NCBI RefSeq assembly: GCF_001598795.1
Contig: NZ_BCZP01000027.1
Location: 30,001 to 62,000 of the forward strand
Direction: 5' to 3'
DNA length: 32,000 nucleotides
DNA from: Delftia acidovorans NBRC 14950
GTDB lineage: Bacteria; Pseudomonadota; Gammaproteobacteria; Burkholderiales; Burkholderiaceae_C
Numbering within the stretch: the first letter of the stretch is position 1; each line of letters begins with the position of its first letter. Positions 6,573 through 29,045 of this stretch are shown in pieces. The position numbers were made by a program, and so were the translations under genes. A model generated the notes under the pieces. The model saw only the letters and a list, made by a program, of their open reading frames with translations. It did no database searches and was not told the DNA's origin.

Positions 6573-6839
6573 ATGAGTGCTGACTTGGCGTTAAAAATGA
6601 TGTCGGACCTGTTCTGGACGGGTCTGATCGTATGTCTCCCGATACTGGGCCTGACCATGCTGACCGGATTGCTCATCAGCGTGGTGCAGGTGGTCACGCA
6701 AATCCAGGAAATGTCGCTGACTTTCGTTCCGAAGCTGTTCGTGGCTGCCGTCGTGCTGATCGTGTGCGGCCCCTGGATGCTGAAGAAACTGGGGCAGTTC
6801 GCAACCCAGCTCTGGACGCGCATTCCGGCGATGTTCTGA
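6573..6839 (+). CDS. fliQ: Flagellar export apparatus protein FliQ
   Basis: 88-aa two-TM protein; ...GLLISVVQVVTQIQEMSLTFVPKLFVAAVVLIV... matches the FliQ/SctS family. RBS AAGGTGA lies upstream of the ATG. Confidence 0.9.
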   Translation: MSADLALKMMSDLFWTGLIVCLPILGLTMLTGLLISVVQVVTQIQEMSLTFVPKLFVAAVVLIVCGPWMLKKLGQFATQLWTRIPAMF

Positions 6840-6850
6840 ATCCCCACGAT

Positions 6851-7678
6851 ATGGATTCCCTGCCGCATCACTGGCTGCCGGCGATCGCTGGCACCTGGCT
6901 TCACGACGCGTGGTTAAAAGCTTTTCTTCCCTCGTTGCGGTTGGCTGTCGTGCTGGCAATGACCCCCGTGCTGTATGCCATGCCCATTCCCGGGCGCGTG
7001 CGTGCGCTGCTGGTGATCGGCCTGTCCTGGACGATGGGGCAATTGCTGTCGTTGCCACCGGCAGCGGCCGCACTGAGCATGGGTGGATTGCTCCAGGCGG
7101 CATGCGTGGAGGTGGCGCTGGGCATTGTGCTGGCGTTGGGCGTGCTGCTGGCATTCGCAGCCTTTTCCCTGGCGGGCAATCTTCTCGATGTGCAGATCGG
7201 GTTTGGCATTGCGCAAGTGTTCGATCCCGTGGGTAACAAGGCCGCGCCGCTGCTGGTGTCGGCATTCAACTATGTGGCCGTAGTCGGCTTCGTGCTGATC
7301 GATGGCCATCACAGCCTGCTGCGGGCCCTCGCCTACAGCTTCGAGCTGTTTCCGGCCGGTGCGAACTGGCCATTGGTTCTCGCCTCGGGCCCCGTCTTCA
7401 AGCAGGCCAGCGGGATGTTCATTCTTGGATTTGCGCTGGCCGCCCCTGTGGTGTTCTGTATTTTGCTTGTGGAGTTCGCCTTGGGCCTGGTCGCCAGAAA
7501 TCTTCCGCAGATCAATATGTTGGTACTGGGCATTCCGGCCAAGATCGTTGTCGGGTTTGCCGTGATGTCGCTGTGGTTTGCAGGAATGGGCGGCGCCATG
7601 AACCGGGTCTACATGGGAATTTTCGACATGTGGGCGGCCGTCTTTCTCACTGCGTCCCATGGGGCGGGAGCGCGCTGA
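6851..7678 (+). CDS. fliR: Flagellar export apparatus protein FliR
   Basis: 275-aa polytopic membrane protein from in-frame ATG 6851, positioned between fliQ and flhB. Contains FliR-like segments (LLDVQIGFGIAQVFDP, LVARNLPQINMLVLGIPAKI). Confidence 0.85.
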   Translation: MDSLPHHWLPAIAGTWLHDAWLKAFLPSLRLAVVLAMTPVLYAMPIPGRVRALLVIGLSWTMGQLLSLPPAAAALSMGGLLQAACVEVALGIVLALGVLLAFAAFSLAGNLLDVQIGFGIAQVFDPVGNKAAPLLVSAFNYVAVVGFVLIDGHHSLLRALAYSFELFPAGANWPLVLASGPVFKQASGMFILGFALAAPVVFCILLVEFALGLVARNLPQINMLVLGIPAKIVVGFAVMSLWFAGMGGAMNRVYMGIFDMWAAVFLTASHGAGAR

Positions 7679-8760
7679 TGGCCGAGCAGGATCTGGACCG
7701 CAATGAGACGGCCACCCCTTACAAGCTGCAAAAGGCCAGGGAAAAGGGCCAGGTTTCCAAGAGTTCCGACGTGGTGTCGGCCCTGGTGTTCACGGTTGCC
7801 GTTGCCTACCTCTCGTGGCAAGGATGGGATATGGCGCTTCGCCAGTTCCGGCTTGACCAGTTGCTGGTCATTCAAAGCTCTGCGGCCGGCCCCGGCGCTG
7901 AAATGCTGTGGCCCCTGATTGCCGGCATGCTCAAGGAAGCATTGGCCTGGCTGGCGCCGTTCGCGTGCACCGTGATGATTACCGCGGTGGTCGGCAATGC
8001 GATGCAGACGGGGCCGGTTCTCTCGGTGGAGCCCGTGGTTGCCGATTTCAACCGCCTCAATCCTGCCAATGGCATCCAGCGCGTGCTGTCCATGCGAGCC
8101 CTGTTTGACGCAGCCCGCGCCTGCGTCAAGCTGGGTTTGCTGATCGCAGTCGCCTATTTCTCTCTCAAGGACCTGGCGCCCCAGTTCTACAGCCTTTCCG
8201 GCCTGTCACCCCAGGGCTATCTCAAGACGCTGATTGCCGACCTGGGCAGCCTGGGTTTCAAGATGGCATTGCTGATGGCCATCATCGCTGCTGTTGACTG
8301 GGTGTTCACGCGCCGCGAATTCGCCAAGAAGATGCGCATGAGCAAGCGCGAAGTCAAGGATGAGCACAAGCAGCGCGAGGGCGACCCGCGGGTGAGGGCG
8401 CGACTGCGCGACTTGCAGCGTGAGGCGCGCAAGCGCAGCAAGGCCCTGCACCAGACCCGCAATGCGGACGTAGTGCTCACCAATCCCACGCATGTGGCCG
8501 TTGCGCTGCGCTATGTCCATGGAGAGATGGACTCGCCTCAGGTCGTTGCCAAGGGCGCAGGCCATCTGGCGGCGGCCATGCGGCAGATCGCCGCCAGGCA
8601 CCGCATTCCTGTCGTGCGCAGTCCTGCGCTGGCTCGCCGCCTGTTCAGTGAACTCGATGTGGAGCACCACGTGCCGCCGCACCTGTTTGCCGATGTGGCC
8701 CGCATCATCGTGTGGATCTTCGCCATGCGCGAGCGCTCGGCGGCGGGGGCTGCGCCATGA
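7678..8760 (+). CDS. flhB: Flagellar export switch protein FlhB
   Basis: N-terminus MAEQDLDRNETATPYKLQKAREKGQVSKS, four TM segments, KMSKREVKDEHKQREGDP and the autocleavage motif NPTH (VVLTNPTHVAVALRY). The start overlaps the fliR stop (TGATG). Confidence 0.93.
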   Translation: MAEQDLDRNETATPYKLQKAREKGQVSKSSDVVSALVFTVAVAYLSWQGWDMALRQFRLDQLLVIQSSAAGPGAEMLWPLIAGMLKEALAWLAPFACTVMITAVVGNAMQTGPVLSVEPVVADFNRLNPANGIQRVLSMRALFDAARACVKLGLLIAVAYFSLKDLAPQFYSLSGLSPQGYLKTLIADLGSLGFKMALLMAIIAAVDWVFTRREFAKKMRMSKREVKDEHKQREGDPRVRARLRDLQREARKRSKALHQTRNADVVLTNPTHVAVALRYVHGEMDSPQVVAKGAGHLAAAMRQIAARHRIPVVRSPALARRLFSELDVEHHVPPHLFADVARIIVWIFAMRERSAAGAAP

Positions 8761-10856
8761 AATCCCTGCAACGCTTTTTCGGCAGGCACAGCGATGTGGC
8801 CATGGTCCTGCTGGTGCTCGGTGTGCTGGTGGTGCTGTTTGCGCCCATCCCCAGCGGACTGCTGGATTTCCTGATCCTGACCAACTTCAGCTTCGCCTTC
8901 CTGATCCTTCTGCTGACCTTCTACATGGCCAGGCCGGTGGAGTTTTCCACCTTTCCGTCCCTGCTGCTGATCGCCACCTTGTTCCGGCTATCGCTCAATG
9001 TGGCGGCCACGCGGCTGATCCTGTCGGATGGAGACGCCGGACGTGTCATCGGCGCCATTGGCGCCTATGTGGTGGGGGGCAACTATGTGATCGGCCTCAT
9101 CGTCTTCCTCATCCTCATCGTGGTGCAGTACGTCGTGGTCACGAACGGCGCGCAGCGCATCTCGGAAGTGGCGGCGCGATTCACGCTGGACAGCATGCCG
9201 GGGCAGCAGATGAGCATCGATGCCGACCTGAACATGGGCTTCATCGACCAGGCAGAGGCACAACGGCGCCGCAAGAACATCGAGAAGGAAGCCGGCTTCT
9301 ATGGCGCCATGGATGGCGCGAGCAAATTCGTCAAGGGCGATGCCATCGCGGGCATCATCATCTTGCTGATCAACATCATCGGCGGCCTGGTCATCGGGGT
9401 GATGCAGCACAAGCTGCCATGGGCGCAGGCCCTCAAGACCTATTCACTGCTGACCATAGGCGATGGCATCGTCACCCAGGTCCCGGCGCTGATCATTGCC
9501 GTGGGCACCGGCATCATCGTGACGCGCTCGGCCTCGGACGGCAACCTGAGCCAGGAGGTGCTGCGCCAGATCACCTCCTTCCCCAAGACGCTGCTGCTGG
9601 TGGGTGCCGCGCTGACCGGCCTGCTGTTCTTTCCAGGAATTCCAGCCCTGCCGACTTTGGTGCTGATCGCTGTCGTTGCCGCAGTGGCGTGGGTGGTCTA
9701 CCGCAACGCCAGCAACTCCGCCGAGGATGGCACGGCGCCGGCCGATGCGCAGGATGCCGCACAGCCAGCCGATGCGGCACAGAAAGGGGAGGATGACCCC
9801 TATGCGTCGCTGCAGGTGGAGCCCATCGAAGTCCATGTGGGCAGCGAGTGGGCGGCCCTGGTCAGCCAGCCCGGCAGTGTCCTCATGGATCGCATTGCCA
9901 CCTTCCGCAAGCAGCATGCCCAGGACCTGGGCCTGGTCCTGCCGCGCGTGCGCTTCAAGGACGTTGCGCGGCTGGGGCAGGACCGGTACGAGATCCATAT
10001 CGACGGCGTGGTGTGCGGGCGTGGCGAGGCGCGGGCCGACCGCCTGCTGGCCATCCATCCGACCGGCAGGACCGATGGAATGCCCGGGGAGCCCACGCGG
10101 GACCCGACCTACGGCCTGCCCGCACTCTGGATCGAGGAGCACCAGCGCGCCGCCGCCACGGTCGCCAAGTTCACGCTGGTGGACGCGCCCACTGTCTTCA
10201 TGACGCATCTGACGGAAGTGCTGCGACGCGAATCGGCCACGCTGCTGACGCGGGCCGAGGTGGACCGGCTGCTCAATCGCGTGCGCCAGAACCAGGCCAG
10301 CCTGGTGGAAGAGTTGATTCCGACCGTGCTGTCCGTCAGTGACGTACAGCGTGTGCTGCAGAACCTGTTGCGCGAGAAGGTGTCGATACGGCATGTGGAA
10401 GCCATCCTGGAAACCTTGGCGGATGCCGGACGCCAGACCAAGGACGTACTGCATCTGACCGAGATGGTGCGTCTGCGCCTGGGTCACGCCATCTGCCAGG
10501 GGCTGGCGGGCGAAGGCGCCGCCCTGCATGTCATCACGCTCGACCCGGCCATAGAAAGCCAGCTGCTGCAAGGCCTGCAGTCCGCGCAGGCCGGCCTGCG
10601 CGCCGACGACGGCGCGGCCGCCCCGGCGTCCTTCGCGCTGGAGCCCAAGCTGGCTGAACAAATGATGCTCAAGCTCATGCAGCAGACCGAGCGGATGATG
10701 AAAAGCAATCTGCTTCCCGTGCTGTTGTGCGCCCCCGAGCTGCGCCGGCATGTACGCCTGCTGTCCGAGCGGATGATGCCCCACCTGCGGGTGCTGTCCA
10801 TGGCCGAGGTGCCCCAGGCCATCGAGCTCAAGTCCTATGCCGTCGTGAGCCTCTAG
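8757..10856 (+). CDS. flhA: Flagellar export gate protein FlhA
   Basis: 699 aa with conserved FlhA/SctV segments (FPSLLLIATLFRLSLNVAATRLIL, MPGQQMSIDADLN, GAMDGASKFVKGDAIAGIII) and a large cytoplasmic C-domain. ATGA overlap with flhB. Confidence 0.95.
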   Translation: MKSLQRFFGRHSDVAMVLLVLGVLVVLFAPIPSGLLDFLILTNFSFAFLILLLTFYMARPVEFSTFPSLLLIATLFRLSLNVAATRLILSDGDAGRVIGAIGAYVVGGNYVIGLIVFLILIVVQYVVVTNGAQRISEVAARFTLDSMPGQQMSIDADLNMGFIDQAEAQRRRKNIEKEAGFYGAMDGASKFVKGDAIAGIIILLINIIGGLVIGVMQHKLPWAQALKTYSLLTIGDGIVTQVPALIIAVGTGIIVTRSASDGNLSQEVLRQITSFPKTLLLVGAALTGLLFFPGIPALPTLVLIAVVAAVAWVVYRNASNSAEDGTAPADAQDAAQPADAAQKGEDDPYASLQVEPIEVHVGSEWAALVSQPGSVLMDRIATFRKQHAQDLGLVLPRVRFKDVARLGQDRYEIHIDGVVCGRGEARADRLLAIHPTGRTDGMPGEPTRDPTYGLPALWIEEHQRAAATVAKFTLVDAPTVFMTHLTEVLRRESATLLTRAEVDRLLNRVRQNQASLVEELIPTVLSVSDVQRVLQNLLREKVSIRHVEAILETLADAGRQTKDVLHLTEMVRLRLGHAICQGLAGEGAALHVITLDPAIESQLLQGLQSAQAGLRADDGAAAPASFALEPKLAEQMMLKLMQQTERMMKSNLLPVLLCAPELRRHVRLLSERMMPHLRVLSMAEVPQAIELKSYAVVSL

Positions 10857-10893: not shown

Positions 10894-11682
10894 ATGCAAG
10901 AAGTACTCGCCCTCGCGCTGCAATCCATGCAGCAGGACATGCAGCGACTGGACCGGACAGGCCTGAACCTGGCCAATGCCCTGACGCCGGGCTACCAGCG
11001 CGAGGTTGTCTCGGCGCGGCCTTTGCGGCTGGGCACTCCCTCGTTTGCCGCGATGGTCGGCACGGCAGCCGCCGCCGCCGTCGCCGAGAACGCGCCGGCT
11101 GTGTCACCCCATGCGCCTGCTGCCGGTCTGCTGGTGCAGACCGACCACCGTCCCGGCACGCTTCGCTCCACGGGGCAGAACCTGGATGTCGCCCTGGCTG
11201 GCGCAGGCTATTTCGAGGTGAGCACGCCCGGTGGACCGGCCTACACGCGCCAGGGCAATTTCAGGCTCGACGCACAGGGGCGCCTGGTCACCGCCCAGGG
11301 CCATGCCGTCATGGGGCGAGGTGGCGAGATCCTCCTTCAGTCAAGCCAGGTGCGCATCGATGCCCAGGGAAACATCTTCGACGGGGATGGGGTGGGCCGC
11401 ACGGACAGACCCGTCGCGCAGTTGAAGGTGGTCGAGATGCCGCAGCCCTCGCAACTGCGGCGCCTGGGCGAAGGTCTCATGTCCATCGATGGCCAGCCCG
11501 GACAGCTTGCCGATGCCGATATCCGCATACAGCAGGGCTTTGTCGAGAACTCCAACGTCAGCTCCATGCACGAGATGGTGCAACTGATGCAGACCATGCG
11601 GCATTTCGAGTCCATGCAGAAGGTGGCGCTGGGCTATGACGAGATGACCGGCCAGGCCATACGCAAGCTGGGAGAACTGTGA
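10894..11682 (+). CDS. flgF: Flagellar proximal rod protein FlgF
   Basis: 262 aa. N-terminal rod motif (LNLANALTPGYQRE) and C-terminal rod motif (GFVENSNVSSMHEMVQLMQTMRHFESMQK). Lies directly upstream of flgG. Confidence 0.8.
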   Translation: MQEVLALALQSMQQDMQRLDRTGLNLANALTPGYQREVVSARPLRLGTPSFAAMVGTAAAAAVAENAPAVSPHAPAAGLLVQTDHRPGTLRSTGQNLDVALAGAGYFEVSTPGGPAYTRQGNFRLDAQGRLVTAQGHAVMGRGGEILLQSSQVRIDAQGNIFDGDGVGRTDRPVAQLKVVEMPQPSQLRRLGEGLMSIDGQPGQLADADIRIQQGFVENSNVSSMHEMVQLMQTMRHFESMQKVALGYDEMTGQAIRKLGEL

Positions 11683-11807
11683 TGGCACATCTTCGCTGCG
11701 GTTGTTCCGCCTGCTTCGGCAGCCCGGACTCCGGCAAGCATCCGTTTTGCAAGACGCGCCAGGTCATTGCACCTGGCCAATTTCTGGAGGCAGATTTCCA
11801 TGTATGA
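11682..11807 (+). CDS. Possible 41-aa Cys-rich mini-ORF between flgF and flgG (speculative)
   Basis: My translation is MAHLRCGCSACFGSPDSGKHPFCKTRQVIAPGQFLEADFHV. The ATG overlaps the flgF stop (TGATG) and the stop overlaps the first codons of flgG. The third-position G/C bias is coding-like in the first two thirds. Confidence 0.2.
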   Translation: MAHLRCGCSACFGSPDSGKHPFCKTRQVIAPGQFLEADFHV

Positions 11808-12594
11808 CGCTTTGTACATCGGCGCGACCGGCATGCAGGCGCAGCAGCTCAACGTCGAGACCATCGCCAGCAATCTGGCCAACGTCAACACGGCAGGCTA
11901 CAAGCGGTCGCGGGTCAGCTTCTCCGATCTGGTCGCCCTGGATCCGGCACGCCGCACGGCGGCCCTGGCCGGGCCCGACGCGGGCCTGCTTGCGCCGGTG
12001 ATGCGCATGGGCGCCGGGGTGGGCGTGGCGGGCATCTCCAAGCTCTTCGACGCAGGCGATATCAAGAAGACCGACCTGCCCATGGACATCATCGTTCAGG
12101 GTGAAGGTTTCTTCGAGGTACAGACACCCGATGGAACTCCCGCGTACACACGCGGCGGCACCTGGACGGTCAACCGGGACGGCAACCTGGCCACATCCGC
12201 AGGCCTGGCCCTGAAGCCGGCAATCGCGGTTCCAGACGATGTGCAGGCGCTGGTTGTGCAGCCCGATGGACGCGTGCAGGCACGCGTGGCCGGGCAGCAA
12301 AGCCTTGCGGACCTGGGCAAGATCGATCTGGTCCGCTTTGCCAATCCCCAGGGCCTGGCTGCGCAGGGCGACAACCTGTACCGCAGCAGTGCCGCGTCGG
12401 GCGAGGCACTGCTGGTGCGTCCGGGCGAAGAGGGCGCGGGCCACATTGCGCAGGGCTACCTGGAGGCCTCCAACGTGAAGATGGTGGACGAGATGGTCAA
12501 CCTGATGCTGGCCCAGCGCACCTATGAGGCCAACACCAAGATCGTCCAGGCCGCCGACGACATGATGGGCATGGTCAACGGACTGCGGCGATGA
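11800..12594 (+). CDS. flgG: Flagellar distal rod protein FlgG
   Basis: MYDALYIGATGMQAQQLNVETIASNLANVNTAGYKRSRVSF at the N-terminus and GYLEASNVKMVDEMVNLMLAQRTYEANTKIVQAADDMM at the C-terminus closely parallel FlgG. ATG 11800 is preceded by GGAGG. Confidence 0.92.
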   Translation: MYDALYIGATGMQAQQLNVETIASNLANVNTAGYKRSRVSFSDLVALDPARRTAALAGPDAGLLAPVMRMGAGVGVAGISKLFDAGDIKKTDLPMDIIVQGEGFFEVQTPDGTPAYTRGGTWTVNRDGNLATSAGLALKPAIAVPDDVQALVVQPDGRVQARVAGQQSLADLGKIDLVRFANPQGLAAQGDNLYRSSAASGEALLVRPGEEGAGHIAQGYLEASNVKMVDEMVNLMLAQRTYEANTKIVQAADDMMGMVNGLRR

Positions 12595-13631
12595 GGCGGA
12601 TGCAGGCTCTCTTGCCCGTGGCCGCGCTGGCGACTGCGTGCTGCGCTCCCGCCTGGGCGGTGCCTGCGCAGGCGTGGCTGCGCGTTGAGCTGCGTCCTCA
12701 GGTGACGGTGCAGCATTCCAGCGTGCGGCTTGCAGACATTGCGGTGCTGACCAGCTCCGACCTGGGCATGCTGCGCCGCGCGCTGGCCATACCGCTGGGA
12801 CAGGCTCCGCGCCCGGGAGAAAGCGCCGTGCTGGAAAGCGAGCGGCTGGGCTACTGGCTCAGAAGCCGCACAGGACTCAGAGAGGACCAGATCGACTGGC
12901 GCGGGCCCCGCCAGACGGCCATCGTCACGGCCGTGCAGGAGATTGCGGGCGAGCAGGTGGCTGCCCAGGCGCAGGCTGCACTGGCCGAACACCTGCGGTC
13001 AATGGCCCGGCAAAAGGGCCTGGTCCTTTCACGCCTGGACATCGATCCTGTGGCCCTGCCCTTGTCCCTGGAGGTGCCTGTGCAGGGGCGGCGCCTGCAG
13101 GTGCGGCCCCTGAACGCGACACGGATGGGCCCGCGCATGCTGGTCTGGGTCGATGTGTTCTCGGGTGATCGCCATGTGCGGGCCATTCCCGTGCGATTCG
13201 AGGTGGCTGCCTTTGCCCGGCTTCCCGTCGCCTCGCATGCCATGCCGGCCGGCTCGCCCGTGCAGGCCGACGGCATGGAAATGCGCGAGATCGATGTGAC
13301 CGCAATGCTAGGCCTGTCCGGCCTGTCCGCCTTGCCCGGGGGCGTTCAGGTGGATGCATCGGCTGGAGCCGATGCAGACCCGCCCGTGCTGCGCCGCGCG
13401 CTGCAGGCAGGTGACGTCGTTTCTGCAGACAGCCTGCTGGCCAGGCCTGCCGTGGTGCGGGGTGAATGGGCCAGCCTGGTGACGCGCCAGGGACCGCTGT
13501 CGCTGGAGAGCCGGGTGGAAGTCCTGCAGGACGGACAGCCCGGGCAGATCGTGCGTGCCAGGCCGGCCAATGCGACGGGGGTGCTGTCCGTCCGCGTGGT
13601 GGGCCGGGGCCAGTTGGAGTTGCAACCATGA
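12591..13631 (+). CDS. flgA: P-ring assembly chaperone FlgA (unusually long)
   Basis: Signal peptide MRRMQALLPVAALATACCAPAWA; SAF-like segment VRLADIAVL; C-terminal GDVVSADSLLARPAVVRGEWASLV...GQIVRARPANATGVLSVRVVGRGQLEL resembles FlgA. Sits between flgG and flgH. At 346 aa it is longer than usual. Confidence 0.65.
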   Translation: MRRMQALLPVAALATACCAPAWAVPAQAWLRVELRPQVTVQHSSVRLADIAVLTSSDLGMLRRALAIPLGQAPRPGESAVLESERLGYWLRSRTGLREDQIDWRGPRQTAIVTAVQEIAGEQVAAQAQAALAEHLRSMARQKGLVLSRLDIDPVALPLSLEVPVQGRRLQVRPLNATRMGPRMLVWVDVFSGDRHVRAIPVRFEVAAFARLPVASHAMPAGSPVQADGMEMREIDVTAMLGLSGLSALPGGVQVDASAGADADPPVLRRALQAGDVVSADSLLARPAVVRGEWASLVTRQGPLSLESRVEVLQDGQPGQIVRARPANATGVLSVRVVGRGQLELQP

Positions 13632-14227
13632 CGACGGCAATCAAGATGACGGTGAAAGCCAGGGCCGCAGTCCTGGCGTGGGCCATGGCAGCACCGCTGG
13701 GTGCGCTGCATGCCGAGAGCCTGTTCCAGGAGCAGACCTTCAGGCCCTTGATGGCCGACAACAAGGCATTTCGCGTGGGAGACGTGCTGACCGTGCAGGT
13801 GTTCGAGAACTCCAGCGCAACCACCTCGGCCGATACGGGCACGCGCCGCCGCAACGCCTTGTCTGCCGACCTTTCCCACGGCAGCGGCAGCGTGGCACAG
13901 ACGGCAGCGGGCCTGGGTGGCACCTTCGACGGCGGCGGACGCACCCAGCGCACCAACCGCGTGCTGGCCACGCTCACGGTTTCCGTGCAGGAGGTGCTGG
14001 CCAACGGCGACCTGCTGGTGGGCGGGGAGCAGACGCTGACCGTGAACGAAGAGCCGCAGAAAGTGACCCTGCAGGGGCGGGTCCGCCCGCTGGACATCTC
14101 GGATGGCAACGTGGTGCTGTCCACGCGCCTGGCCGACGCGCGCATCAGCTACGTGGGCGAGGGCGATCTTGCCGAGCGCAGCCGCCGCCCCTGGTGGCGC
14201 AGCCTTCTGGACAACCTGGGGCTTTGA
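13628..14227 (+). CDS. flgH: L-ring protein FlgH (no lipobox cysteine)
   Basis: 199 aa from ATG 13628 (ATGA overlap with flgA). LFQEQTFRPLMADNKAFRVGDVLTVQVFENSSATTSADTGTRR and LQGRVRPLDISDGNVVLSTRLADARISYVGEG match FlgH. The protein contains no Cys at all. Confidence 0.85.
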   Translation: MTTAIKMTVKARAAVLAWAMAAPLGALHAESLFQEQTFRPLMADNKAFRVGDVLTVQVFENSSATTSADTGTRRRNALSADLSHGSGSVAQTAAGLGGTFDGGGRTQRTNRVLATLTVSVQEVLANGDLLVGGEQTLTVNEEPQKVTLQGRVRPLDISDGNVVLSTRLADARISYVGEGDLAERSRRPWWRSLLDNLGL

Positions 14228-14228
14228 C

Positions 14229-15365
14229 ATGGCGTATTGCATGAAGAATTTGTGGAGCTGCGTGCTGGGCGCTGCATTGCTGGCGGGCTTGCAGATTCCC
14301 CTGAGCGCACAGGCCGAAAGCGTGCGCGTCAAGGACCTCGGAAAACTGCAGGGCTGGCGCGAGAACGCCCTGGTGGGCACGGGCATCGTCACGGGCCTGG
14401 CGGGCACGGGCGACTCCGCCTCCAGCCGGGGTGCGCGCCAGGCGCTGTCCAACGCCATGTCGCAGTTCAACCTGAATATTCCCCCGGAGCAGATCCAGAG
14501 CCGCAACGTGGCCGTCGTCATGGTCAGTGCCGCGCTGTCGCCCTTCTCCCGCGAGGGCGATACGCTGGACGTGACCGTCACCTCGGTGGGCGACGCGCGC
14601 AGCCTGGTCGGCGGCAGCCTCATGCTCATGCCGCTCAAGGCGGCCAACGGCCGCATCTACGCACTGGCCCAGGGGGCCTTGTCGGTGGGCGGCTACCGAT
14701 ATGACGCCAACGGCAACGTGGTCCAGAAGAACCACCCCACCGTCGGCTCCATTCCTGGCGGGGCGACGGTCGAGGTCGGCGTCACCGCACAGGTGGTATC
14801 GCAGGACAACCGCATGACCTTCGTGCTCAACGAGCCCGACTACACCACGGCCGACCGGGTCGCCGAGGCCATCAACCGCCAGTTCGGCGACTCGCTCGCC
14901 CAGGCGCGCGATGCCTCCGGCATCGACCTGTTCGTGCCCGAAGGGCAGCGGCGCCGGCTGGTGTCCTTCGTCTCGCGGCTGGAGTCGGTCTTCGTCGAAC
15001 CTGACCGGCGCGCCAAGGTCGTGATCAACGAGCGCACCGGCACCGTGGTATCGGGTGGGGATGTGCAGATATCCAAGGTCGCCATCTCGCATGGAGACCT
15101 GAAGCTGTCCATTCGCAATGAGGTCACTGCCTCGCAGCCCGGCTTCATCGGCGTGGCAGGCGATGGCGTGCGCACGGCGCTGGTGACGAACACCCGCGTG
15201 GATGTGGAAGAGCGTCAGGTGCCGGGCTTCGTGTCGGGCAGCACCACGGTGGCCGACCTGGTCCAGTCCCTGGTGAGCCTCAAGACCAATACGCGCGACA
15301 TCATTTCCATTCTCCGGGCCGTCAAGGCCGCCGGCGCCCTGCACGCCGAGCTGATCGTCCAGTAA
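14229..15365 (+). CDS. flgI: P-ring protein FlgI
   Basis: Signal peptide followed by VRVKDLGKLQGWRENALVGTGIVTGLAGTGDS, and C-terminus DIISILRAVKAAGALHAELIVQ, both typical of FlgI. An alternative ATG lies at 14241. Confidence 0.92.
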   Translation: MAYCMKNLWSCVLGAALLAGLQIPLSAQAESVRVKDLGKLQGWRENALVGTGIVTGLAGTGDSASSRGARQALSNAMSQFNLNIPPEQIQSRNVAVVMVSAALSPFSREGDTLDVTVTSVGDARSLVGGSLMLMPLKAANGRIYALAQGALSVGGYRYDANGNVVQKNHPTVGSIPGGATVEVGVTAQVVSQDNRMTFVLNEPDYTTADRVAEAINRQFGDSLAQARDASGIDLFVPEGQRRRLVSFVSRLESVFVEPDRRAKVVINERTGTVVSGGDVQISKVAISHGDLKLSIRNEVTASQPGFIGVAGDGVRTALVTNTRVDVEERQVPGFVSGSTTVADLVQSLVSLKTNTRDIISILRAVKAAGALHAELIVQ

Positions 15366-15389: not shown

Positions 15390-15782
15390 ATGACCCAGGC
15401 AATCGAGGCCGTCACCGTGGCCAGCCTGTCCATGGCGCTGGATGCGGCATCGCTGCGCCACCAGGCCATCGCACGCAACATCGCCAATGCCGGCACCCAG
15501 GGCTACGTCCCGGTACAGGCGAGCTTCTCCGGGCAGATGCAGGAAGCACGGCGTCAGCTGGACCAGGGCCAGCTGTTGAGCACGGCGCAAGTCGATGCCA
15601 TGGCGCAGGAGAGCCTGCGCCTGGAGCCCCGGCGCGATGCGACGGGCCTGCCAGCCAGCGTGCAGCTGGACTCCGAGGTGGCCCAGATGGCGCACAACGC
15701 CGTCCACTACCAGGCCCTGCTCAAGGGCCTGTCGCAACACATGTCGCTTTTGTCATCCGCCGTCTCTGACGGCAAGCGTTGA
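15390..15782 (+). CDS. flgB: Flagellar rod protein FlgB
   Basis: 130 aa; LRHQAIARNIANAGTQGYVP rod N-terminal motif. Strong RBS AGGAGGGA. Position upstream of flgC. Confidence 0.8.
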   Translation: MTQAIEAVTVASLSMALDAASLRHQAIARNIANAGTQGYVPVQASFSGQMQEARRQLDQGQLLSTAQVDAMAQESLRLEPRRDATGLPASVQLDSEVAQMAHNAVHYQALLKGLSQHMSLLSSAVSDGKR

Positions 15783-15793
15783 GGAACCTTCGC

Positions 15794-16210
15794 ATGGACT
15801 ATTCACAAGCCTTCGCCATCAGCGCCAGCGGCATGACGCTGGAGCGCACCCGTGTCGAGGTCGCGTCGCTGAACCTGGCCAATGCCAACACCGTGGCAGG
15901 CACCGACGGCAAGCTCTTCCAGCCGCTGCGCGTCGTGGCGCGCACCTCCTTCTCGGAAACCGTGGCCCAGGGGCTGGCAGCGAATCCCGTGGTCTCGCTG
16001 GAGCCTACGCAGCAGCCGGCGCGCATGGTGTATGAGCCAGGCCATCCCATGGCCGACGCGCGCGGCTTTGTCTCCTATGCCGGCGTGGATACCGCCACGG
16101 AAATGGTCACCATGATGAGTGCCATGCGCGCCTACGAGGCCAATGTGGCCGCGATGAACACGGCTCGCAGCATGGCGCAGAAGGCGCTGGCCATCGGAGG
16201 TGGCGCATGA
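15794..16210 (+). CDS. flgC: Flagellar rod protein FlgC
   Basis: MDYSQAFAISASGMTLERTRVEVASLNLANANT at the N-terminus and EMVTMMSAMRAYEANVAAMNTARSMAQKAL at the C-terminus. ATG 15794 follows GAGGAA. Confidence 0.9.
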   Translation: MDYSQAFAISASGMTLERTRVEVASLNLANANTVAGTDGKLFQPLRVVARTSFSETVAQGLAANPVVSLEPTQQPARMVYEPGHPMADARGFVSYAGVDTATEMVTMMSAMRAYEANVAAMNTARSMAQKALAIGGGA

Positions 16211-16545
16211 GCACCGAAGCCCTGGGCGCGGTGTCCGCAGCCCTTTCCTCGATCGCCGAGCCTTCGCTGGCCCCTTTGCAAGGCGCCATGCATGCAGGGG
16301 ACGCTGGTGCGTCCGGTACCACCGGTGCCGGCTTTTCCAGCATGGTCACGCAGGGCCTGCAGCAGGTCAACGGACAACTGCTGGCCAGCCAGGCGGACTT
16401 GCAGCAGCTGTCCGTGGGCAATGTGCAGAACCTGCACCAGGTCATGATCCGCCTCGAGGAAAGCCGGCTGGCGTTCCAGCTGACCATGCAGGTGCGAAAC
16501 CGCCTGCTGGAGTCCTACCAGGACGTCATGAGGATGCAGGTGTAG
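16207..16545 (+). CDS. fliE: Flagellar MS-ring/rod adaptor FliE
   Basis: 112 aa. C-terminus LHQVMIRLEESRLAFQLTMQVRNRLLESYQDVMRMQV matches the FliE signature. ATGA overlap with flgC. Confidence 0.85.
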   Translation: MSTEALGAVSAALSSIAEPSLAPLQGAMHAGDAGASGTTGAGFSSMVTQGLQQVNGQLLASQADLQQLSVGNVQNLHQVMIRLEESRLAFQLTMQVRNRLLESYQDVMRMQV

Positions 16546-16630
16546 CCGTCCCTGGGCAGCGCAGGCAGCAGGCTTGCGCGCGCCCCGGATCACACCGCTG
16601 AACTTCGCAACGCATCAAGAGCAAAAACAC

Positions 16631-25353: not shown

Positions 25354-25758
25354 ATGTCTTTGCAGAACACGCCGCCGCAAGCTCCTGGCGCGCAATCCAT
25401 TCCGTCTCCGGCCCCGCGCATGCAGCGCATCGAGCTTGCCGAGCTGGATACTGCTGCCCCTTCCCCGGCTTCCTCTGCGGCACCCCAGCCGCTGGTGCCC
25501 AGCCTGCACCCGCTGCACCAGGTCAAGACCACCGTGCAGGTCTGCGTGGGCACTGCCACGCTGACGGTCGGTGAACTGCTGGGCGCCCAGGCACAGCAGG
25601 TGCTGGTGCTGGACACGGCTGTGGAGCAGGCCGTGGACCTGCTGGTGGAAGGCCAGGTGGTTGCGCGTGGGCAACTGGTGGCTGTGGGCGACCGCTTCGC
25701 CGTGCGCCTGACGGAGCTGCCCACGCCGCTGGGACTTCAAGCCAAGGCACATCCATGA
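25354..25758 (+). CDS. fliN: C-ring protein FliN
   Basis: 134 aa from ATG 25354. SpoA domain VKTTVQVCVGTATLTVGELLGAQAQQVLVLDTAVEQAVDLLVEGQVVARGQLVAVGDRFAVRLTEL. Confidence 0.8.
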   Translation: MSLQNTPPQAPGAQSIPSPAPRMQRIELAELDTAAPSPASSAAPQPLVPSLHPLHQVKTTVQVCVGTATLTVGELLGAQAQQVLVLDTAVEQAVDLLVEGQVVARGQLVAVGDRFAVRLTELPTPLGLQAKAHP

Positions 25759-26171
25759 CCGTGGCACTGCCGGAGTCCATCCCCCTGCGCCGTGAGCCAG
25801 CGCCTGTTCCCGGCACGCCCGCCGAGGAACTGGCGTGGATGGGTGTTTTCATCGTCCTGCTGCTGCTGGTCTTCGTGGCTTGGCGCAAGTGCCGGCCGGG
25901 CGGCGCTGCCAGCGAGGGCAAGGCGCCGGCAGCGGGCTGGCTGGGACGGTGGATGGGCAGTCTGCAAAAAAAGCAGGAGCTCCGTACCAGCCTGGTCTCC
26001 AGCGCACGCCTGACGCCCCAGCACAGCGTGCACGAGGTGACCTGGCAGGGCAGGCGGCTGCTGATAGGCTGCGCACCCCAGTCCATCGCCTTGCTGGCCG
26101 AGGCACCGCTGGATGAGAGCGCGGCGCAGCCAGCCCCGTCCACCAACGAAGGCAAGGACGGCACGCCATGA
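25755..26171 (+). CDS. fliO: FliO-like export apparatus assembly protein
   Basis: 138 aa, single TM (WMGVFIVLLLLVFVAW), then LVSSARLTPQHSVHEVTWQGRRLLIGCAPQSIALLAE, which resembles the FliO C-region. Sits between fliN and fliP with ATGA overlaps on both sides. Confidence 0.55.
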   Translation: MTVALPESIPLRREPAPVPGTPAEELAWMGVFIVLLLLVFVAWRKCRPGGAASEGKAPAAGWLGRWMGSLQKKQELRTSLVSSARLTPQHSVHEVTWQGRRLLIGCAPQSIALLAEAPLDESAAQPAPSTNEGKDGTP

Positions 26172-26917
26172 CACAAGCCGCATCTAGCAGCCTGCGTCAG
26201 GGCCTGCGCAGGGCCGCAGCCGTGGGCGCCCTGTTGTTCATGGCGGGCGCCGCCTATGCGCAGGCCAGCGGCAAGGCCGGTGCAGCCACGGAGACATCGC
26301 AGGCCTTGCGTATCGTCATCGGCCTGACCCTGCTGGCCGTGCTGCCCGCCTTGCTGGTCTGCGTGACCAGCTTCCTGCGCATCATCATCGTGCTGTCCAT
26401 GCTGCGCCACGCCATCGGCATGAACGAAACGCCGCCCAACACCGTGCTCATCGGACTGGCGCTGTTCCTCACCATGTTCACCATGGCGCCCGTGCTGGAG
26501 CAGGTCAACCGCGAAGCCGTGCAGCCCTTCATGGAAGGCCGCGCCGGCATGCAGGAAGGCTTTGCCAAGGGCATGGCGCCGCTGCGCGACTTCATGGTGC
26601 GCCAGACGCGCGAGCAGGACCTGGCCCTCATGGTCGAACTGTCCAAGGCCGAGCCGCCCGCGTCCATGGACGACATCAGCAACGTGCAGCTGATTCCGGC
26701 CTTCATGCTGTCCGAGCTGCGCGCCGCCTTCCAGATCGGCTTTGTCGTCTTCCTGCCCTTTCTGCTCATCGACCTGATCGTCTCCAGCGTGCTCATGACG
26801 CTGGGCATGATGATGATGCCGCCCACCACTATCGCCTTGCCCATCAAGGTGCTGATGTTCATCCTCATCGACGGCTGGAGCCTGCTGCTGCGTGCGCTGG
26901 TGGGCAGCTTTCACTGA
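26168..26917 (+). CDS. fliP: Flagellar export apparatus protein FliP
   Basis: Signal-like N-terminus, then SFLRIIIVLSMLRHAIGMNETPPNTVLIGLALFLTMFTMAPV and MMMPPTTIALPIKVLMFILIDGW, which are highly conserved FliP/SctR segments. Confidence 0.95.
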   Translation: MTQAASSSLRQGLRRAAAVGALLFMAGAAYAQASGKAGAATETSQALRIVIGLTLLAVLPALLVCVTSFLRIIIVLSMLRHAIGMNETPPNTVLIGLALFLTMFTMAPVLEQVNREAVQPFMEGRAGMQEGFAKGMAPLRDFMVRQTREQDLALMVELSKAEPPASMDDISNVQLIPAFMLSELRAAFQIGFVVFLPFLLIDLIVSSVLMTLGMMMMPPTTIALPIKVLMFILIDGWSLLLRALVGSFH

Positions 26918-26937
26918 GGCCTGCGCGCTTGCCCGCC

Positions 26938-27789
26938 ATGGCTGCCGCCGCACCTTCCGCAAGCACGGATCTTCTCCTGGAGGAAGAGGCGCAACTGTGG
27001 TCGCGCTGGCGTGGGGCAGGCGATGCGGCGGCCCGCGAGCGGCTGGTGCTGCACTACCTGCCCTTTGCCCGCACCCTCGCTGCCGTGCATTACCGCGGCC
27101 GGATCCACGCCGATGTGGAGTTTGACGACTACCTGCAACTGGCGCGCCTGGGCCTGATGGAGTCCGTGGACCGTTACGAGCCGGAGCGTGGCGCCCAGTT
27201 CAAGACCTATGTGGCCCATCGCATCCGTGGTGCCTTGCTCAACGGCCTGGAGAAAGCCACCGAAAAAAGCCAGCAGATCGCGGCCCGCAAGCGCCTTCAG
27301 GCCGAACGGCTCGAAAGCGTCAAATCTGCGGCGCTGGACGCAGCTGCGTCCCATCCCTGCGATGAAGGCCGAGGGACAACGGCGCGCGGCCCGGTGGCCC
27401 GCTCGCGCCAGAGCACCTTGCTGGCCTACCTGGCCGAAGTCGGCATAGGCATTGCGCTGGGTGTCATGCTGGAGGACACCGGAATGGTCGCCGCCGACGG
27501 GGAATCCGAAGGCGGGGACGTTGCCGCCGTGGCCGCCTCCCCCGACGTGCTGTACTTCCGAAAGACCGAACTGCAACGCTGGCGGGAGCAACTGCGCGAG
27601 GCACTGGCACGGCTGCCAGCCCAGGAGAGCAAGGTCATCCGCTACCACTACCAGCAGGAAATCCCGTTCGAAGAGATTGCCGCCATGCTCGGCGTCTCGC
27701 GCAGCCGGGTCTCGCAGCTGCACCGCCAGGGGTTGGGCAAGTTGCGCCACATGCTAGGACAGGGGCCGCCCTGTGACGTCTTCCTCTAG
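26938..27789 (+). CDS. fliA: FliA/WhiG-type (sigma-28 family) RNA polymerase sigma factor with an extended inter-domain linker
   Basis: Region 2-like DDYLQLARLGLMESVDRYEPERGAQFKTYVAHRIRGALLNGL and region 4 HTH IPFEEIAAMLGVSRSRVSQLHRQGLGKLRHML. 283 aa from ATG 26938; the track start at 26929 is a TTG. Confidence 0.8.
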   Translation: MAAAAPSASTDLLLEEEAQLWSRWRGAGDAAARERLVLHYLPFARTLAAVHYRGRIHADVEFDDYLQLARLGLMESVDRYEPERGAQFKTYVAHRIRGALLNGLEKATEKSQQIAARKRLQAERLESVKSAALDAAASHPCDEGRGTTARGPVARSRQSTLLAYLAEVGIGIALGVMLEDTGMVAADGESEGGDVAAVAASPDVLYFRKTELQRWREQLREALARLPAQESKVIRYHYQQEIPFEEIAAMLGVSRSRVSQLHRQGLGKLRHMLGQGPPCDVFL

Positions 27790-27872
27790 ACGCCTGCCCA
27801 TACCCGCCAATCCCACCACAGCTTCAGCCCCCGTGGCTGCCCTGACAATCACCACCATCCGAGGGAACATCC

Positions 27873-29045
27873 ATGAGCGCACAAACTCCCCAGACTGACG
27901 AAGGCTCCACGGCCAGGCTGGAACGCCTGGAAGCCTATCTGCGTGAAGACCCGTCCAACCCCGGCCTGCTGACCGAGGCCTTTGGGGCGGCGCTGCAGTG
28001 TGCCCAATGGGAGCGTGCCGCCTTTCACCTGCGGCACGCCCAGGCGCTGCAGCCCGGCAACCTGGCCTGGTCGCTGCGCGAAGGCGACCTGCTGCTGGCC
28101 CAGGGCCAGTACCAGCTCGCCGCCGAACTGCTGGATGCCCTGCTGTCGCTGGACGGCGCACCCCGAGAATTCACCGATGCCGTGCTGCACAACTTGGCCT
28201 GGATCGCCTTCCAGGATGGCCGCTACCAGGATTGCGCAGACAGGTTGACTTCCAGGCTGCAGGATCTGGACCACCCTGCGTCGGCCGCATTGGCCCGCCT
28301 GTGGCTGCGTGCATTGCACCATGCAGGCCAGGTCGATCAGGCCGTGGCCTGGGCTGGCGCTGCGGATGCAAGGCAACAACTGCCCGCCGCCGCCGCGGGC
28401 GTGGCCAGCCTCGCAGCCCTGGATGCGGATCAGTTGGAGCGTGCAGGCCAATGGGCCGCCCGTGCGCTGGAGCAGGCCACGCCTGACGACCGCCCCATCG
28501 AGGCCTTGGTCACCCAGTCCTCGCTGGCGCTGGCCCGCCAGGATGCGGCACAGGCCCGCACGCAGGCCCGCGCCGCCCTGCAGATCAGCCCGCGCGATGG
28601 CCGTGCCTGGTCCGCCCATGCCATGGCCGACCTGCTGGCTGGCGACCTGCCCACGGCCCTGGCCCACTTCGACAACGCCCTAGCCACCATGCCCGGCCAT
28701 ATCGGCACCTGGCACGGCAAGGCCTGGGCGCAGCTGCTGTCTTCCGACCTGCAGGGAGCGCAGCGTAGCTTCACCAGCGCGCTGGACCTGGACCGCAACT
28801 TCGCCGAAAGCCATGGCGGCCTGGCCGTGGCCCTGGCCCTGCAGGGCCGCACGGACGAGGCCCAGCAACACATTGAGCGCGCCCTGCGCCTGGACGCCTT
28901 CAACCTCTCCGGACGCTACGCGCAGGCCATCGTGGGTGGAGAGATCCGGGATCTGGAGTCCTTCCAGGCGCTGGCCAAGCGGCTGTTGCGGGGGCAGGAT
29001 GGGTTGCTCAAGGCAGTGCTGGGCGCCTCAAAGGCTGGGCGCTGA
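27873..29045 (+). CDS. TPR-repeat protein, last gene of the cluster
   Basis: 390 aa of helical Ala/Leu-rich repeats with TPR-like spacing (e.g. WHGKAWAQLLSSDLQGAQRSFTSALDLDRNFAESHGGLAVALALQGRTDEAQQHIERALRLD). Confidence 0.7.
   Translation: MSAQTPQTDEGSTARLERLEAYLREDPSNPGLLTEAFGAALQCAQWERAAFHLRHAQALQPGNLAWSLREGDLLLAQGQYQLAAELLDALLSLDGAPREFTDAVLHNLAWIAFQDGRYQDCADRLTSRLQDLDHPASAALARLWLRALHHAGQVDQAVAWAGAADARQQLPAAAAGVASLAALDADQLERAGQWAARALEQATPDDRPIEALVTQSSLALARQDAAQARTQARAALQISPRDGRAWSAHAMADLLAGDLPTALAHFDNALATMPGHIGTWHGKAWAQLLSSDLQGAQRSFTSALDLDRNFAESHGGLAVALALQGRTDEAQQHIERALRLDAFNLSGRYAQAIVGGEIRDLESFQALAKRLLRGQDGLLKAVLGASKAGR

Follow-up and report, generated by a model that had tools for sequence, protein, structure and literature searches.

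What is a flagellar-type gene cluster for, if it encodes an export gate, rings, rod and hook and has no gene for a filament? This question is raised by a stretch of 32,000 nucleotides from Delftia acidovorans NBRC 14950 (assembly GCF_001598795.1, contig NZ_BCZP01000027.1, positions 30,001 to 62,000 of the forward strand; hereafter the window), in which 26 intact, co-directional genes on the plus strand form an unbroken chain from 6573 to 29045. We found that this cluster is best explained, with a probability that we put at roughly 55%, as an accessory, horizontally mobile, flagellum-derived export apparatus with giant Rhs proteins as a putative late substrate; it is probably not the flagellum with which D. 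acidovorans swims. More tentatively, and at slightly less than even odds, the whole cluster family may be a dedicated secretion system for Rhs toxins, possibly for contact-dependent delivery, in which the toxins would be recognised through a common N-terminal prefix, driven by sigma-28-type promoters and escorted by tetratricopeptide repeat (TPR) proteins.

The chain was defined from the open reading frame (ORF) listing, inspection of start codons and scans with Pfam and NCBIfam, and comprises one gene more than the 25 of the initial annotation. The export gate and the ATPase complex (FlhAB, FliOPQR, FliHIJ) are represented in full. The gate genes are fliQ (6573–6839; Pfam Bac_export_3, 3e-24), fliR (6851–7678; Bac_export_1, 8e-49), flhA (8757–10856; FHIPEP, 4e-243; product identical to D. 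acidovorans WP_034390887.1), fliO (25755–26171; FliO, 8e-7), fliP (26168–26917; FliP, 7e-75) and flhB (7678–8760; Bac_export_2, 6e-101), which encodes the substrate-specificity switch with its NPTH autocleavage motif at residues 269–272. They are joined by fliH (18762–19658; FliH, 9e-13), the export ATPase gene fliI (19655–21160; ATP-synt_ab, T3SS_ATPase_C) and a gene for a FliJ-like coiled-coil protein (21157–21681), assigned mainly by its position, the matches to FliJ models being weak (Pfam 0.013, TIGR02473 0.18). The MS ring, rod, L and P rings and the hook with its cap are represented as well, by fliF (16574–18145, alternative start 16631; YscJ_FliF, YscJ_FliF_C), fliE (16207–16545; FliE, 8e-24), flgF for the proximal rod (10894–11682; TIGR02490, 8e-47; LlgE_F_G_D1, Flg_bbr_C), flgC for the rod (15794–16210; Flg_bbr_C, Flg_bb_rod), flgG for the distal rod (11800–12594; Flg_bb_rod, LlgE_F_G_D1, Flg_bbr_C), flgH for the L ring (13628–14227; FlgH, 8e-46), flgI for the P ring (14229–15365, alternative start 14241; FlgI, 1e-113), flgA for the P-ring chaperone, here with a long N-terminal extension (12591–13631; ChapFlgA; TIGR03170, 5e-15), flgE for the hook (23274–24446; Flg_bb_rod, LlgE_F_G_D1, FlgE_D2, Flg_bbr_C) and flgD for the hook cap (22850–23248; FlgD, 8e-22). 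The flgB-like gene of the proximal rod (15390–15782) is a weaker assignment, with TIGR01396 at 3e-15, just below cut-off, and no Pfam family above threshold. The putative ruler and switch protein FliK, Pro/Ala-rich and of 391 residues (21678–22853), has no Pfam or NCBIfam match and is assigned from position only; by inspection its C-terminal segment is similar to the C-terminal domain of FliK. The retention of the FlhB NPTH motif and of a protein in the ruler position indicates that the machinery for switching to late substrates has been kept, although the known late substrates are absent.

That absence extends well beyond the window. Relatives were collected by an FlhA scan with one genome per GTDB species (n=362, the best 80 being analysed as loci) and as metagenome contigs anchored on FliP (292 relatives, with 80 contigs analysed); the species scan returned no Delftia genome, which says nothing about absence from this genus. 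Searches with tblastn (E<1e-4), with E. coli and Ralstonia sequences of FliC, FliD, FliS, FliT, FlgK, FlgL, FlgM, FlgN, FlgJ, MotA, MotB, FliL, FliG, FliM, FliK, CheA/W/Y, FlhF and FleN as queries, gave no match to any of these proteins in the window or in about 175 related loci. Filament, stator and chemotaxis genes accordingly occur in 0 of these loci, in line with the initial annotation, which likewise had found no filament, junction, cap, stator, FlgJ/M/N, FliS/T or FliL genes in the window. None of the window proteins has a Flagellin_N or Flagellin_C domain above the Pfam threshold, and the Pfam families of the secretin SctC, SctD, the needle protein SctF and translocators are not found among the 26 gene products.

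The rotor proteins, which had been described as degenerate, were confirmed to be so. In the position of fliG lies a gene for a truncated FliG-like protein of 206 residues (18142–18762) without a Pfam or NCBIfam match. Its 31 detectable homologues have 127–234 residues, mostly 200–234, and no Pfam domain, and it evolves fast, being 47–50% identical to its Paracidovorax homologues where FlhA is 88% identical; the orthologues on the Burkholderia ubonensis and Undibacterium plasmids are shorter still (156 and 169 residues). An AlphaFold2 model (28-sequence alignment; predicted local distance difference test score, pLDDT, of 75) shows a pair of helical domains, the second of which aligns with the middle domain of FliG, and a tail without order. 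Its top 11 Foldseek matches in the PDB are all FliG, the first being full-length FliG of Aquifex (probability 0.99, E 0.03), and FliG middle domains superpose on it at 2.1–2.2 Å over 57–58 residues, with the FliG-like N-domain of MgtE ranking after the FliG matches; hhalign places residues 92–153 on residues 107–168 of E. coli FliG, that is, on the middle ARM domain with the EHPQ motif. These scores are individually weak and mutually consistent, and the predicted fold is that of FliG in a protein too short for the C-terminal domain of ~130 residues that carries the torque helix. The divergent FliM (24450–25346), with a (PLV)n linker and a C-terminal SpoA domain, matches only FliMN_C in Pfam and has SctQ as its best NCBIfam model. 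Its N-terminus (MVRTLQDQCVAAGLL...) is, by inspection, without the CheY-binding peptide LSQxEIDALL, and its AlphaFold2 model is of low confidence (pLDDT 58), the only Foldseek matches below E 0.01 being to Salmonella FliM. The product of fliN (25354–25758) matches FliMN_C (1.5e-17) and both the TIGR02480 FliN and SctQ models. From these models we infer a C ring that would serve as an export platform anchored on FliF, with torque generation and switching lost, a reading which agrees with the constant lack of stator and che genes. As an observation on the side, the (PLV)n linker is encoded by a perfect 9-bp tandem repeat (CTGGTGCCG, 5.4 copies, window 25044–25092), and the number of repeats may vary between strains, the Delftia homologues having 277–298 residues.

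Could the cluster nevertheless be a second, conditional flagellum, for example a lateral one, which the primary regulon would supply in trans with flagellin, junction and cap proteins, stators and a full-length FliG, its own sigma factor activating the genes for them? In favour of this, hook, rod and rings are of the canonical kind, the sigma factor resembles FliA, a motif of sigma-28 architecture could also be read by the primary FliA, and D. acidovorans has flagella that are both polar and lateral (PMC12901137). However, the FliG-position protein lacks the stator-binding domain and is yet under purifying selection, FliM lacks the CheY-binding peptide, and none of the ~175 loci has filament or stator genes. 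Known secondary systems, such as the flhA2 cluster of Xylophilus, encode their own flagellin and motAB, and the present cluster also occurs in Holophaga foetida, which is non-motile according to a passage of PMC8841776 that cites Liesack 1994. We therefore regard a conditional flagellum as unlikely.

Decay of a secondary flagellar system that was once complete would account for the many canonical genes that are missing, for the fast evolution of the FliG-like, FliM-like and FliK-like proteins (31, 10 and 0 recognisable homologues or families, respectively) and for the split flgI in the copy of Undibacterium YM2. Against such decay, all 26 ORFs are intact and, as had been noted from the start, stop and start codons overlap at 13 junctions (7678, 8757, 12591, 13628, 16207, 18142, 18762, 19655, 21157, 21678, 22850, 25755 and 26168), the overlap at 21678 hinging on the start chosen for the FliK-like gene, which public gene calls place at 21822. 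The same reduced gene set and order is present in 80/80 species genomes. Furthermore, the ratio of non-synonymous to synonymous polymorphism (pN/pS), obtained by comparing the window with seven Delftia-like contigs in comparisons that are not independent, lies between 0 and 0.58 for each of the 26 genes, with values of 0.21 for the FliG-like protein, 0.23 for the FliK-like, 0.38 for the FliM-like, 0.18 for the sigma factor and 0.14 for the TPR protein. Within Delftia, purifying selection acts on every one of the 26 genes, which bears out the initial annotation in taking the cluster for a functional unit, and a relic is the least probable of the explanations that we weighed.

The distribution of the cluster is compatible with an accessory role. 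Gene order from fliQ through fliI, including the homologue of the 206-residue protein, is kept in 80/80 of the best species matches, and the 80 FliP-anchored metagenome contigs agree in the 3' half, from fliF to fliP and on to the sigma factor and TPR genes. Within the genus, FlhA, the 206-residue protein and the TPR protein are identical to DR66_ proteins of Delftia acidovorans (GCA_000741825.1, scaffold KN046795.1), and their clusters at 90% identity have 53–56 members, the named ones being all Delftia bar one assembly contaminant. The sequence EDO25690.1, a 383-residue "predicted protein, partial [Nematostella vectensis]" that clusters at 90% with Delftia FlhA, is an evident bacterial contamination of an animal assembly. 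The best 80 of the 362 FlhA relatives are 66–88% identical to the window protein and belong mostly to Burkholderiales; the genera represented are Acidovorax/Paracidovorax, Comamonas, Variovorax, Ramlibacter, Xylophilus, Roseateles, Ralstonia, Cupriavidus, Burkholderia, Pandoraea, Undibacterium, Duganella, Collimonas, Massilia, Telluria and Chitinimonas; outside Betaproteobacteria, at ~74% identity, FlhA is found in Holophaga foetida, in an Anaeromyxobacter metagenome-assembled genome (MAG) and in a "delta proteobacterium" MAG. Copies of the cluster are also carried by two plasmids, a conjugative one of B. ubonensis (with an FlhA of 52% identity) and one of Undibacterium, by a chromid of Variovorax and by the megaplasmid of Ralstonia solanacearum MAFF 211479, and this patchy distribution points to horizontal transfer. 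The copy on plasmid pUYM01 of Undibacterium sp. YM2 (locus L093, 1–14992 and 25306–26438) may be a variant or a decaying one: it is preceded by a 38.8-kb gene for a "tandem-95 repeat protein" (~12,900 residues) without RHS similarity, its flgI is split into two coding sequences, and a FliH/SctL gene lies on the opposite strand after the cluster.

In Ralstonia and Xylophilus the cluster stands beside a primary flagellum. In R. solanacearum MAFF 211479 the megaplasmid carries three FlhA-family genes, namely flhA_1, the gene of the Hrp type III secretion system (T3SS) and the cluster's flhA_2, and the 26-gene cluster lies ~120 kb from the flhA_1 locus with motAB, che, flhB, flhF and fliA; most of the other Ralstonia megaplasmids listed have two FlhA-family genes only. 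A survey of Xylophilus found a cluster named flhA3, without flagellin and patchy, in 2/12 strains, and a complete type-1 flagellar system of 55 genes in all strains surveyed (PMC13436205); strain ASV27, one of our loci (L032), has an FlhA 80% identical to that of the window and the same gene order. Delftia acidovorans itself forms ordinary flagella with hook, junction zone and filament, polar or lateral, as seen by cryo-electron tomography (PMC12901137, the one study that a literature search on Delftia flagellar genes brought up), so genes for flagellin and junction proteins must exist elsewhere in the species, and a separate primary set of basal-body genes would be expected in Delftia too. 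The check by FlhA phylogeny that the initial annotation had proposed supports this separation: in a neighbour-joining tree of 165 sequences, built on the 150 closest representatives and with SctV as outgroup, the cluster FlhAs form a clade among flagellar FlhAs, apart from the group of E. coli FlhA and Ralstonia FlhA_1, this being the only reliable feature of a tree whose deep branches are very short. The window FlhA lies at a distance of 1.1 from flagellar FlhAs and of 1.3 from five SctV references.

The alternative already raised for this DNA, that the cluster is one locus of a single split flagellar regulon and Delftia's only basal-body set, must be weighed against these results. Delftia is flagellated (PMC12901137) and a second flhA in this genome is presumed, both of which would suit it. 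On the other side, the FlhAs of the cluster and of E. coli share 40% identity, where the betaproteobacterial primary FlhA (Ralstonia FlhA_1) reaches 61%, the spread of the cluster is patchy and points to horizontal transfer, with Acidobacteria and Myxococcota included at ~74% identity, the cluster adds to a complete system in Ralstonia and Xylophilus, and a 206-residue FliG without the torque domain could not, judging from the role of the FliG C-terminal domain, drive the motility that is observed. A split regulon is very unlikely. The rotor loss, the selection, the conserved order and the coexistence with a primary flagellum in Ralstonia and Xylophilus agree instead with the earlier proposal of a dedicated, selected hook-basal body that does not rotate.

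If the cluster builds an exporter, what might it export? Directly downstream, convergent with the TPR gene and overlapping it by 38 nt, lies on the minus strand an orphan rhs fragment of 652 residues with RHS repeats and LysM (29008–30966; Pfam RHS_repeat, LysM). It is 41% identical to an RHS/LysM neighbour of the cluster in another locus (L024) and 81% identical to the C-terminal part of a 5,974-residue Rhs protein that is encoded just beyond the window on the same strand, with five small ORFs between the two. This Delftia giant has RHS, TEN_YD-shell and Big_3_5 domains, and its C-terminal region consists of RHS repeats, LysM, a Gly/Ala-rich hydrophobic stretch and a weak match to EndoU nuclease (6e-4, below cut-off); its N-terminus and promoter lie ~24 kb past the end of the window. 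On scaffold KN046795.1, where the window would span about 1,297,964–1,329,963, the gene of the giant is located around 1,333,146–1,351,300 (complement strand). Also on the minus strand are a 75-residue ORF downstream of the orphan toxin tip (31384–31611, a public gene call without a family), which from its position is a candidate immunity protein, and the 3' end of a gene called for a 366-residue orphan Rhs C-terminal module that runs off the window (31721–32000), in which we recognised by inspection a motif (...QQVATDAFGNALG...) in common with the C-terminal region of the giant. A main gene, small candidate immunity ORFs, an orphan C-terminal module and an orphan core fragment make up the classic layout of rhs loci, and the region (window 29000–32000; L100 11136–21173) has a G+C content of 0.59–0.66, below that of the cluster, and a strong GC skew.

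Giant Rhs proteins of ~4,400–6,000 residues are conserved neighbours of the cluster in its relatives, many of which are soil bacteria. They include proteins of 4,440 residues in Ralstonia MAFF 211479 (DUF6531, 31 RHS repeats and LysM), 4,897 residues on the B. ubonensis plasmid and more than 3,276 residues in Telluria (66 RHS repeats), and stand beside the cluster also in Chitinimonas, Ramlibacter, Acidovorax sp. LjRoot129 and the Anaeromyxobacter MAG; the flanking giants are mutually homologous, at 26–39% identity over 900–1,900 residues. We counted Rhs homologues with tblastn, a strict YD-motif regular expression badly under-counting RHS repeats, and found them downstream in 15/21 non-Delftia metagenome loci with a flank of at least 6.5 kb (some contigs come from related organisms, and these counts are not fully independent), in 4/4 Delftia-like metagenome loci with at least 7 kb of flank, and in the upstream flank (7.8 kb) of 12/80 genome loci. 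Genomes hold only a few rhs genes each, so the adjacency expected by chance is ~1%. The adjacency of rhs and cluster is frequent and not obligatory. Among four upstream Rhs neighbours compared by inspection the C-termini differ; downstream of Rhs genes come small ORFs without a family and orphan fragments. In Telluria antibiotica (L088, 1–22037) the cluster is circularly permuted, with fliI...flgD-flgE-fliN-fliP-sigma directly before fliQ-fliR-flhB-flhA, and a giant rhs with a sigma-28-type promoter follows flhA, so that the link with rhs outlasts rearrangement.

The flanking giants have in common the way in which they begin. All 17 giants with known starts, those of Ralstonia and B. ubonensis among them, carry the prefix MVAIVSGNSLGL... 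(M-V-A-I-V-S-G-N-S-L-G-L-x-L-x-S-L-x-x-L-G-Q-R-G), followed by the DUF6531 region, and a giant of Variovorax PDNC026 that is partly seen starts alike. A profile of the first 22 residues gave the giants scores of 34–47 bits, and none of 6,861 control N-termini exceeded 6.9 bits; the best scores other than on the giants themselves were 5.7–6.9 bits, the cluster's FlgD being among them, and FliD and FlgK ranked within the top 2%. By inspection the prefix has no basic n-region, its hydrophobic stretch is broken by Ser, Gly and Asn, and it does not resemble a canonical signal peptide. Searches with the prefix returned short fragments only, none of them from Delftia.

Upstream of ~14–15 of the 17 giant starts, at a distance of 50–135 nt, we found the motif CTAAAC-N16-(T/C)GGAT(A/G)(A/T), whose architecture and spacing fit the sigma-28 consensus TAAA-N15-GCCGATAA. 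It matched 57 times in 2.64 Mb, compared with ~14 in shuffles of the local composition, and in relatives it also precedes TPR genes (of the 190-residue and 370–390-residue types) at or near the 3' end of the cluster and a few other ORFs; of three unlinked rhs genes with the prefix that we examined, one has it (in a Ramlibacter assembly, with the cluster on another contig). In Delftia, the TPR gene (27873–29045; Pfam TPR families) is the last gene of the cluster, a place conserved in relatives, and directly follows that of the sigma factor (26938–27789; Sigma70_r2 and r4; TIGR02479, 6.5e-32). FliA/WhiG is the best family of this factor, at 111 bits and thus below the curated cut-off of 189.6, and it is ~30% identical to FliA of E. 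coli and Ralstonia; its earlier description as sigma-28-type is in line with this family and with putative target promoters in relatives, with the sub-threshold score as a reservation. The TPR protein, of 390 residues, is weakly matched by SctY and LcrH/SycD, both models of T3SS chaperones, and is a candidate chaperone, and the statement that the cluster has no chaperone genes stands for FliS/T and FlgN and may not stand for this one. Nor is the cluster self-contained, as it had been called, since the giant Rhs and TPR genes form a conserved late module.

Some further loci bear on this module. In three of them (L134 at 9578, L167 at 18572 and L145 at 19460, all on the minus strand) a second sigma-28-type motif lies divergent from the promoter of the giant rhs, and the gene that follows it encodes a conserved protein of 346–383 residues (MFIAITMNHI...) without a Pfam family, a candidate member of the regulon. 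A lone late module on a Logan contig (SRR31342644; L190, 7613–11645) consists of a TPR gene (194 residues), a 129-residue ORF, a second TPR gene (376 residues), a truncated rhs with the prefix and a fragment of sigma-70 region 4, with no basal-body genes within 10 kb; in Ralstonia a similar pair of a 194-residue TPR gene and a ~130-residue ORF stands under a sigma-28-type promoter.

Taken as a whole, the gene content suggests how such a system may work. The cluster would build a non-rotating basal body from the export gate, ATPase complex, MS ring, reduced C ring, rod, P and L rings and a hook of controlled length. Upon completion of the hook, FliK and FlhB, with its NPTH motif, would switch export to late substrates, whose sigma-28-type promoters, as seen in relatives, would be read by the cluster's own FliA-like sigma factor. 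In place of flagellin, this late class would consist of giant Rhs/YD-repeat toxins and TPR chaperone-like proteins, the toxins running from the prefix through DUF6531, several dozen RHS repeats and LysM to a Gly/Ala-rich hydrophobic region and a variable toxin tip, with immunity and orphan cassettes behind. Each giant would be recognised through its prefix and escorted by TPR proteins, and the hook, with no junction or cap proteins to close it, would give the unfolded toxin an open passage through both membranes. Salmonella mutants in flgK and flgL lose flagellin to the medium. We infer that these promoters are recognised by the sigma factor, that Rhs is exported via the cluster and that TPR proteins are Rhs chaperones, and with it that a flagellar T3SS may have been co-opted for secretion.

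Several observations weigh against this reading. A second set of flhA, fliG, fliC and motAB is presumed for this Delftia genome; neither AlphaFold2 model, that of the FliG-like protein or that of the FliM-like one, has more than moderate confidence, and the matches of Foldseek to FliG are weak, with E-values no better than 0.03. Both prefix and promoter are known from relatives and not from the Delftia giant, and the sigma-28-type motif is absent from the Delftia window, from the 10 kb beyond it and from L100. The prefix, judged by inspection, may yet contain a Sec signal. The idea that the giants have a flagellin-like N-terminus, suggested by eye from MVAIVSGNSLGL and MAQVINTNSLSL, found no support, E. 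coli FliC ranking 4949th of 5015 N-termini in the prefix profile. Six of the 21 downstream flanks are without rhs, and six reverse look-ups from Rhs fragments with the prefix showed no flagellar genes within 10 kb upstream; for two of the six, the cluster is present in that assembly on a different contig. LysM is typical of proteins of the periplasm too, and we know of no precedent for the export of a protein of 4,000–6,000 residues by a flagellar T3SS.

Some of these observations feed the strongest alternative, a hook-basal body that does not serve motility and for which Rhs is not the cargo, the toxin genes being companions on a mobile island or under a common regulator and the apparatus having another secretion function or a surface or adhesive role. 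Adjacency is not universal, given the flanks and the fragments just mentioned, LysM suggests contact with peptidoglycan, the Undibacterium YM2 plasmid has a different giant (the tandem-95 repeat protein) beside its cluster, and Rhs proteins are known as cargo of type VI secretion (T6SS), with a link to type II secretion also proposed (bioRxiv 10.1101/2025.05.08.652813). However, hitch-hiking hardly explains a common sigma-28-type promoter together with a family-specific prefix that does not look like a canonical signal peptide. The link survives rearrangement, rhs being found upstream or downstream, in convergent or divergent orientation, and on a chromosome, a chromid or plasmids, and it holds down to an FlhA identity of 52% (the B. 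ubonensis type). No PAAR domain appeared in the Pfam results for the giants scanned, no VgrG, PAAR, Hcp, type I or type II secretion genes are annotated in the flanks examined, and the retention of FliK and of NPTH in FlhB implies that there is some late substrate. On balance we consider it a serious though rather unlikely alternative, and prefer an export apparatus with Rhs among its late substrates.

How does the cluster compare with systems already described? Its closest counterpart is the flhA3 "third candidate flagellar system" of Xylophilus sp. ASV27/KACC 21265 (Roux et al. 2026, PMC13436205), which belongs to the same cluster family: its gene list (Flg ABCDEFGHI, FlhAB, Fli AEFHIJMNOPQR) is without flagellin and stands beside a complete type-1 flagellum. 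That paper catalogues flhA3 and gives no function, FliG analysis, Rhs link or promoter, and it treats FlhA3 as a sister of the flagellar class; in our rough neighbour-joining tree, with its deep branches unresolved, the clade is nested within flagellar FlhAs. The cluster type is thus already known, in descriptive form, from Xylophilus; new here are the link with giant Rhs, the prefix, the promoter and the FliG analysis. We found no literature that links Rhs with a flagellar cluster (subscription-only literature lay outside the search), a survey of the Rhs toxins of Ralstonia is silent on flagella, and on filament-less clusters we found only the Xylophilus mention and work on Lysobacter. The non-flagellated Lysobacter enzymogenes has a flagellar T3SS without functional fliC that is reported to secrete FlgD and antifungal proteins and to aid in killing other microbes (PMC7688988), and the likeness lies in a flagellar export apparatus used for secretion without a filament. 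Compared by description, the Lysobacter system is the sole ancestral flagellar set after loss of flagellin, while that of Delftia is dedicated, mobile and additional, with its own sigma factor, a truncated FliG and a linked giant Rhs.

The initial annotation had referred to Buchnera aphidicola, whose filament-less hook-basal bodies are thought to be exporters; the comparison is only loosely apt, since Buchnera has the reductive remnant of a single system in an endosymbiont and the Delftia cluster is a conserved accessory module of free-living, motile bacteria. Flag-2 of E. coli, lateral flagella and Xylophilus flhA2 are likewise second, horizontally acquired clusters beside a primary one, but they encode flagellin, hook-associated proteins, a full FliG and MotAB, which the Delftia cluster family never does. 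With injectisomes the cluster shares the character of a non-rotating exporter related to the flagellum, and its FliM-like protein and FliN score best against SctQ models; it differs in having no secretin, SctD, needle or translocon genes, in keeping rod, L and P rings, hook, FlgD and FliE, and in an FlhA that groups with flagellar FlhAs and not with SctV. We also considered, and set aside as a claim, an intermediate between flagellum and injectisome, suggested by those SctQ scores and by the SctK-like length of the FliG-position protein: Foldseek gives FliG and not SctK, and FlhA nests in the flagellar FlhAs. As predicted from its genes, the cluster lacks the features of a motility flagellum (FliG C-terminal domain, stators, filament, CheY input) as well as those of an injectisome (secretin, needle, SctV-type gate). 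Finally, the giants resemble the Rhs polymorphic toxins associated with T6SS, Sec or Tc systems in their YD repeats, DUF6531, variable C-terminus and downstream small ORFs and orphan modules, and differ in being 3–4 times longer, with no PAAR found in the parts scanned, no evident Sec signal and no VgrG or Hcp annotated nearby, and in their unique prefix, sigma-28-type promoter and link with a flagellar-type apparatus.

A widespread machine would in this way have been overlooked, as genome surveys score the cluster as "a flagellum". If the proposed function holds, it would represent an independent second conversion of a flagellum to toxin delivery, parallel to the injectisome, as well as a new export route for Rhs, and would provide a natural example of a step proposed for the origin of injectisomes, in which motility is lost and secretion kept. 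It would also be tractable, since Delftia, Paracidovorax, Variovorax and Ralstonia can be cultured and there are clear genetic handles in flhA and fliI, in the sigma factor and in the prefix with its promoter, and it would call for caution in inferring motility from counts of flagellar genes, as for Holophaga with its non-motility as given in the source cited above.

Turning to the surroundings, the window has a G+C content of ~67%, and the region upstream of fliQ (6231–6572, plus strand) is an AT-rich intergenic stretch, putatively a promoter or regulatory region. Its description as AT-rich was correct (0.56 in the block 6001–7000 against ~0.68 elsewhere); as for a promoter, no sigma-70 consensus site was found upstream of fliQ in the window, nor, by inspection across loci, a motif common to relatives. 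The claim of non-flagellar genes on both sides holds by family, the 5' neighbours being unrelated (two LysR regulators, an SSF transporter, an amidohydrolase and CobW), but on the downstream side the rhs fragment and locus are conserved partners of the cluster. Scans of the window with Rfam and for tRNAs gave no match. Two features of individual genes may be added. Enterobacterial FlgH is a lipoprotein; the N-terminus of the window FlgH (MTTAIKMTVKARAAVLAWAMAAPLGALHAESLF..., 13628–13730) has a signal-like stretch without cysteine, hence without a lipobox, and differs in this respect. At 19662–19688, just past the overlap with fliH, a 6-bp tandem repeat (TGCCCT, 4.5 copies) encodes LPLPLPLPL in the N-terminus of FliI.

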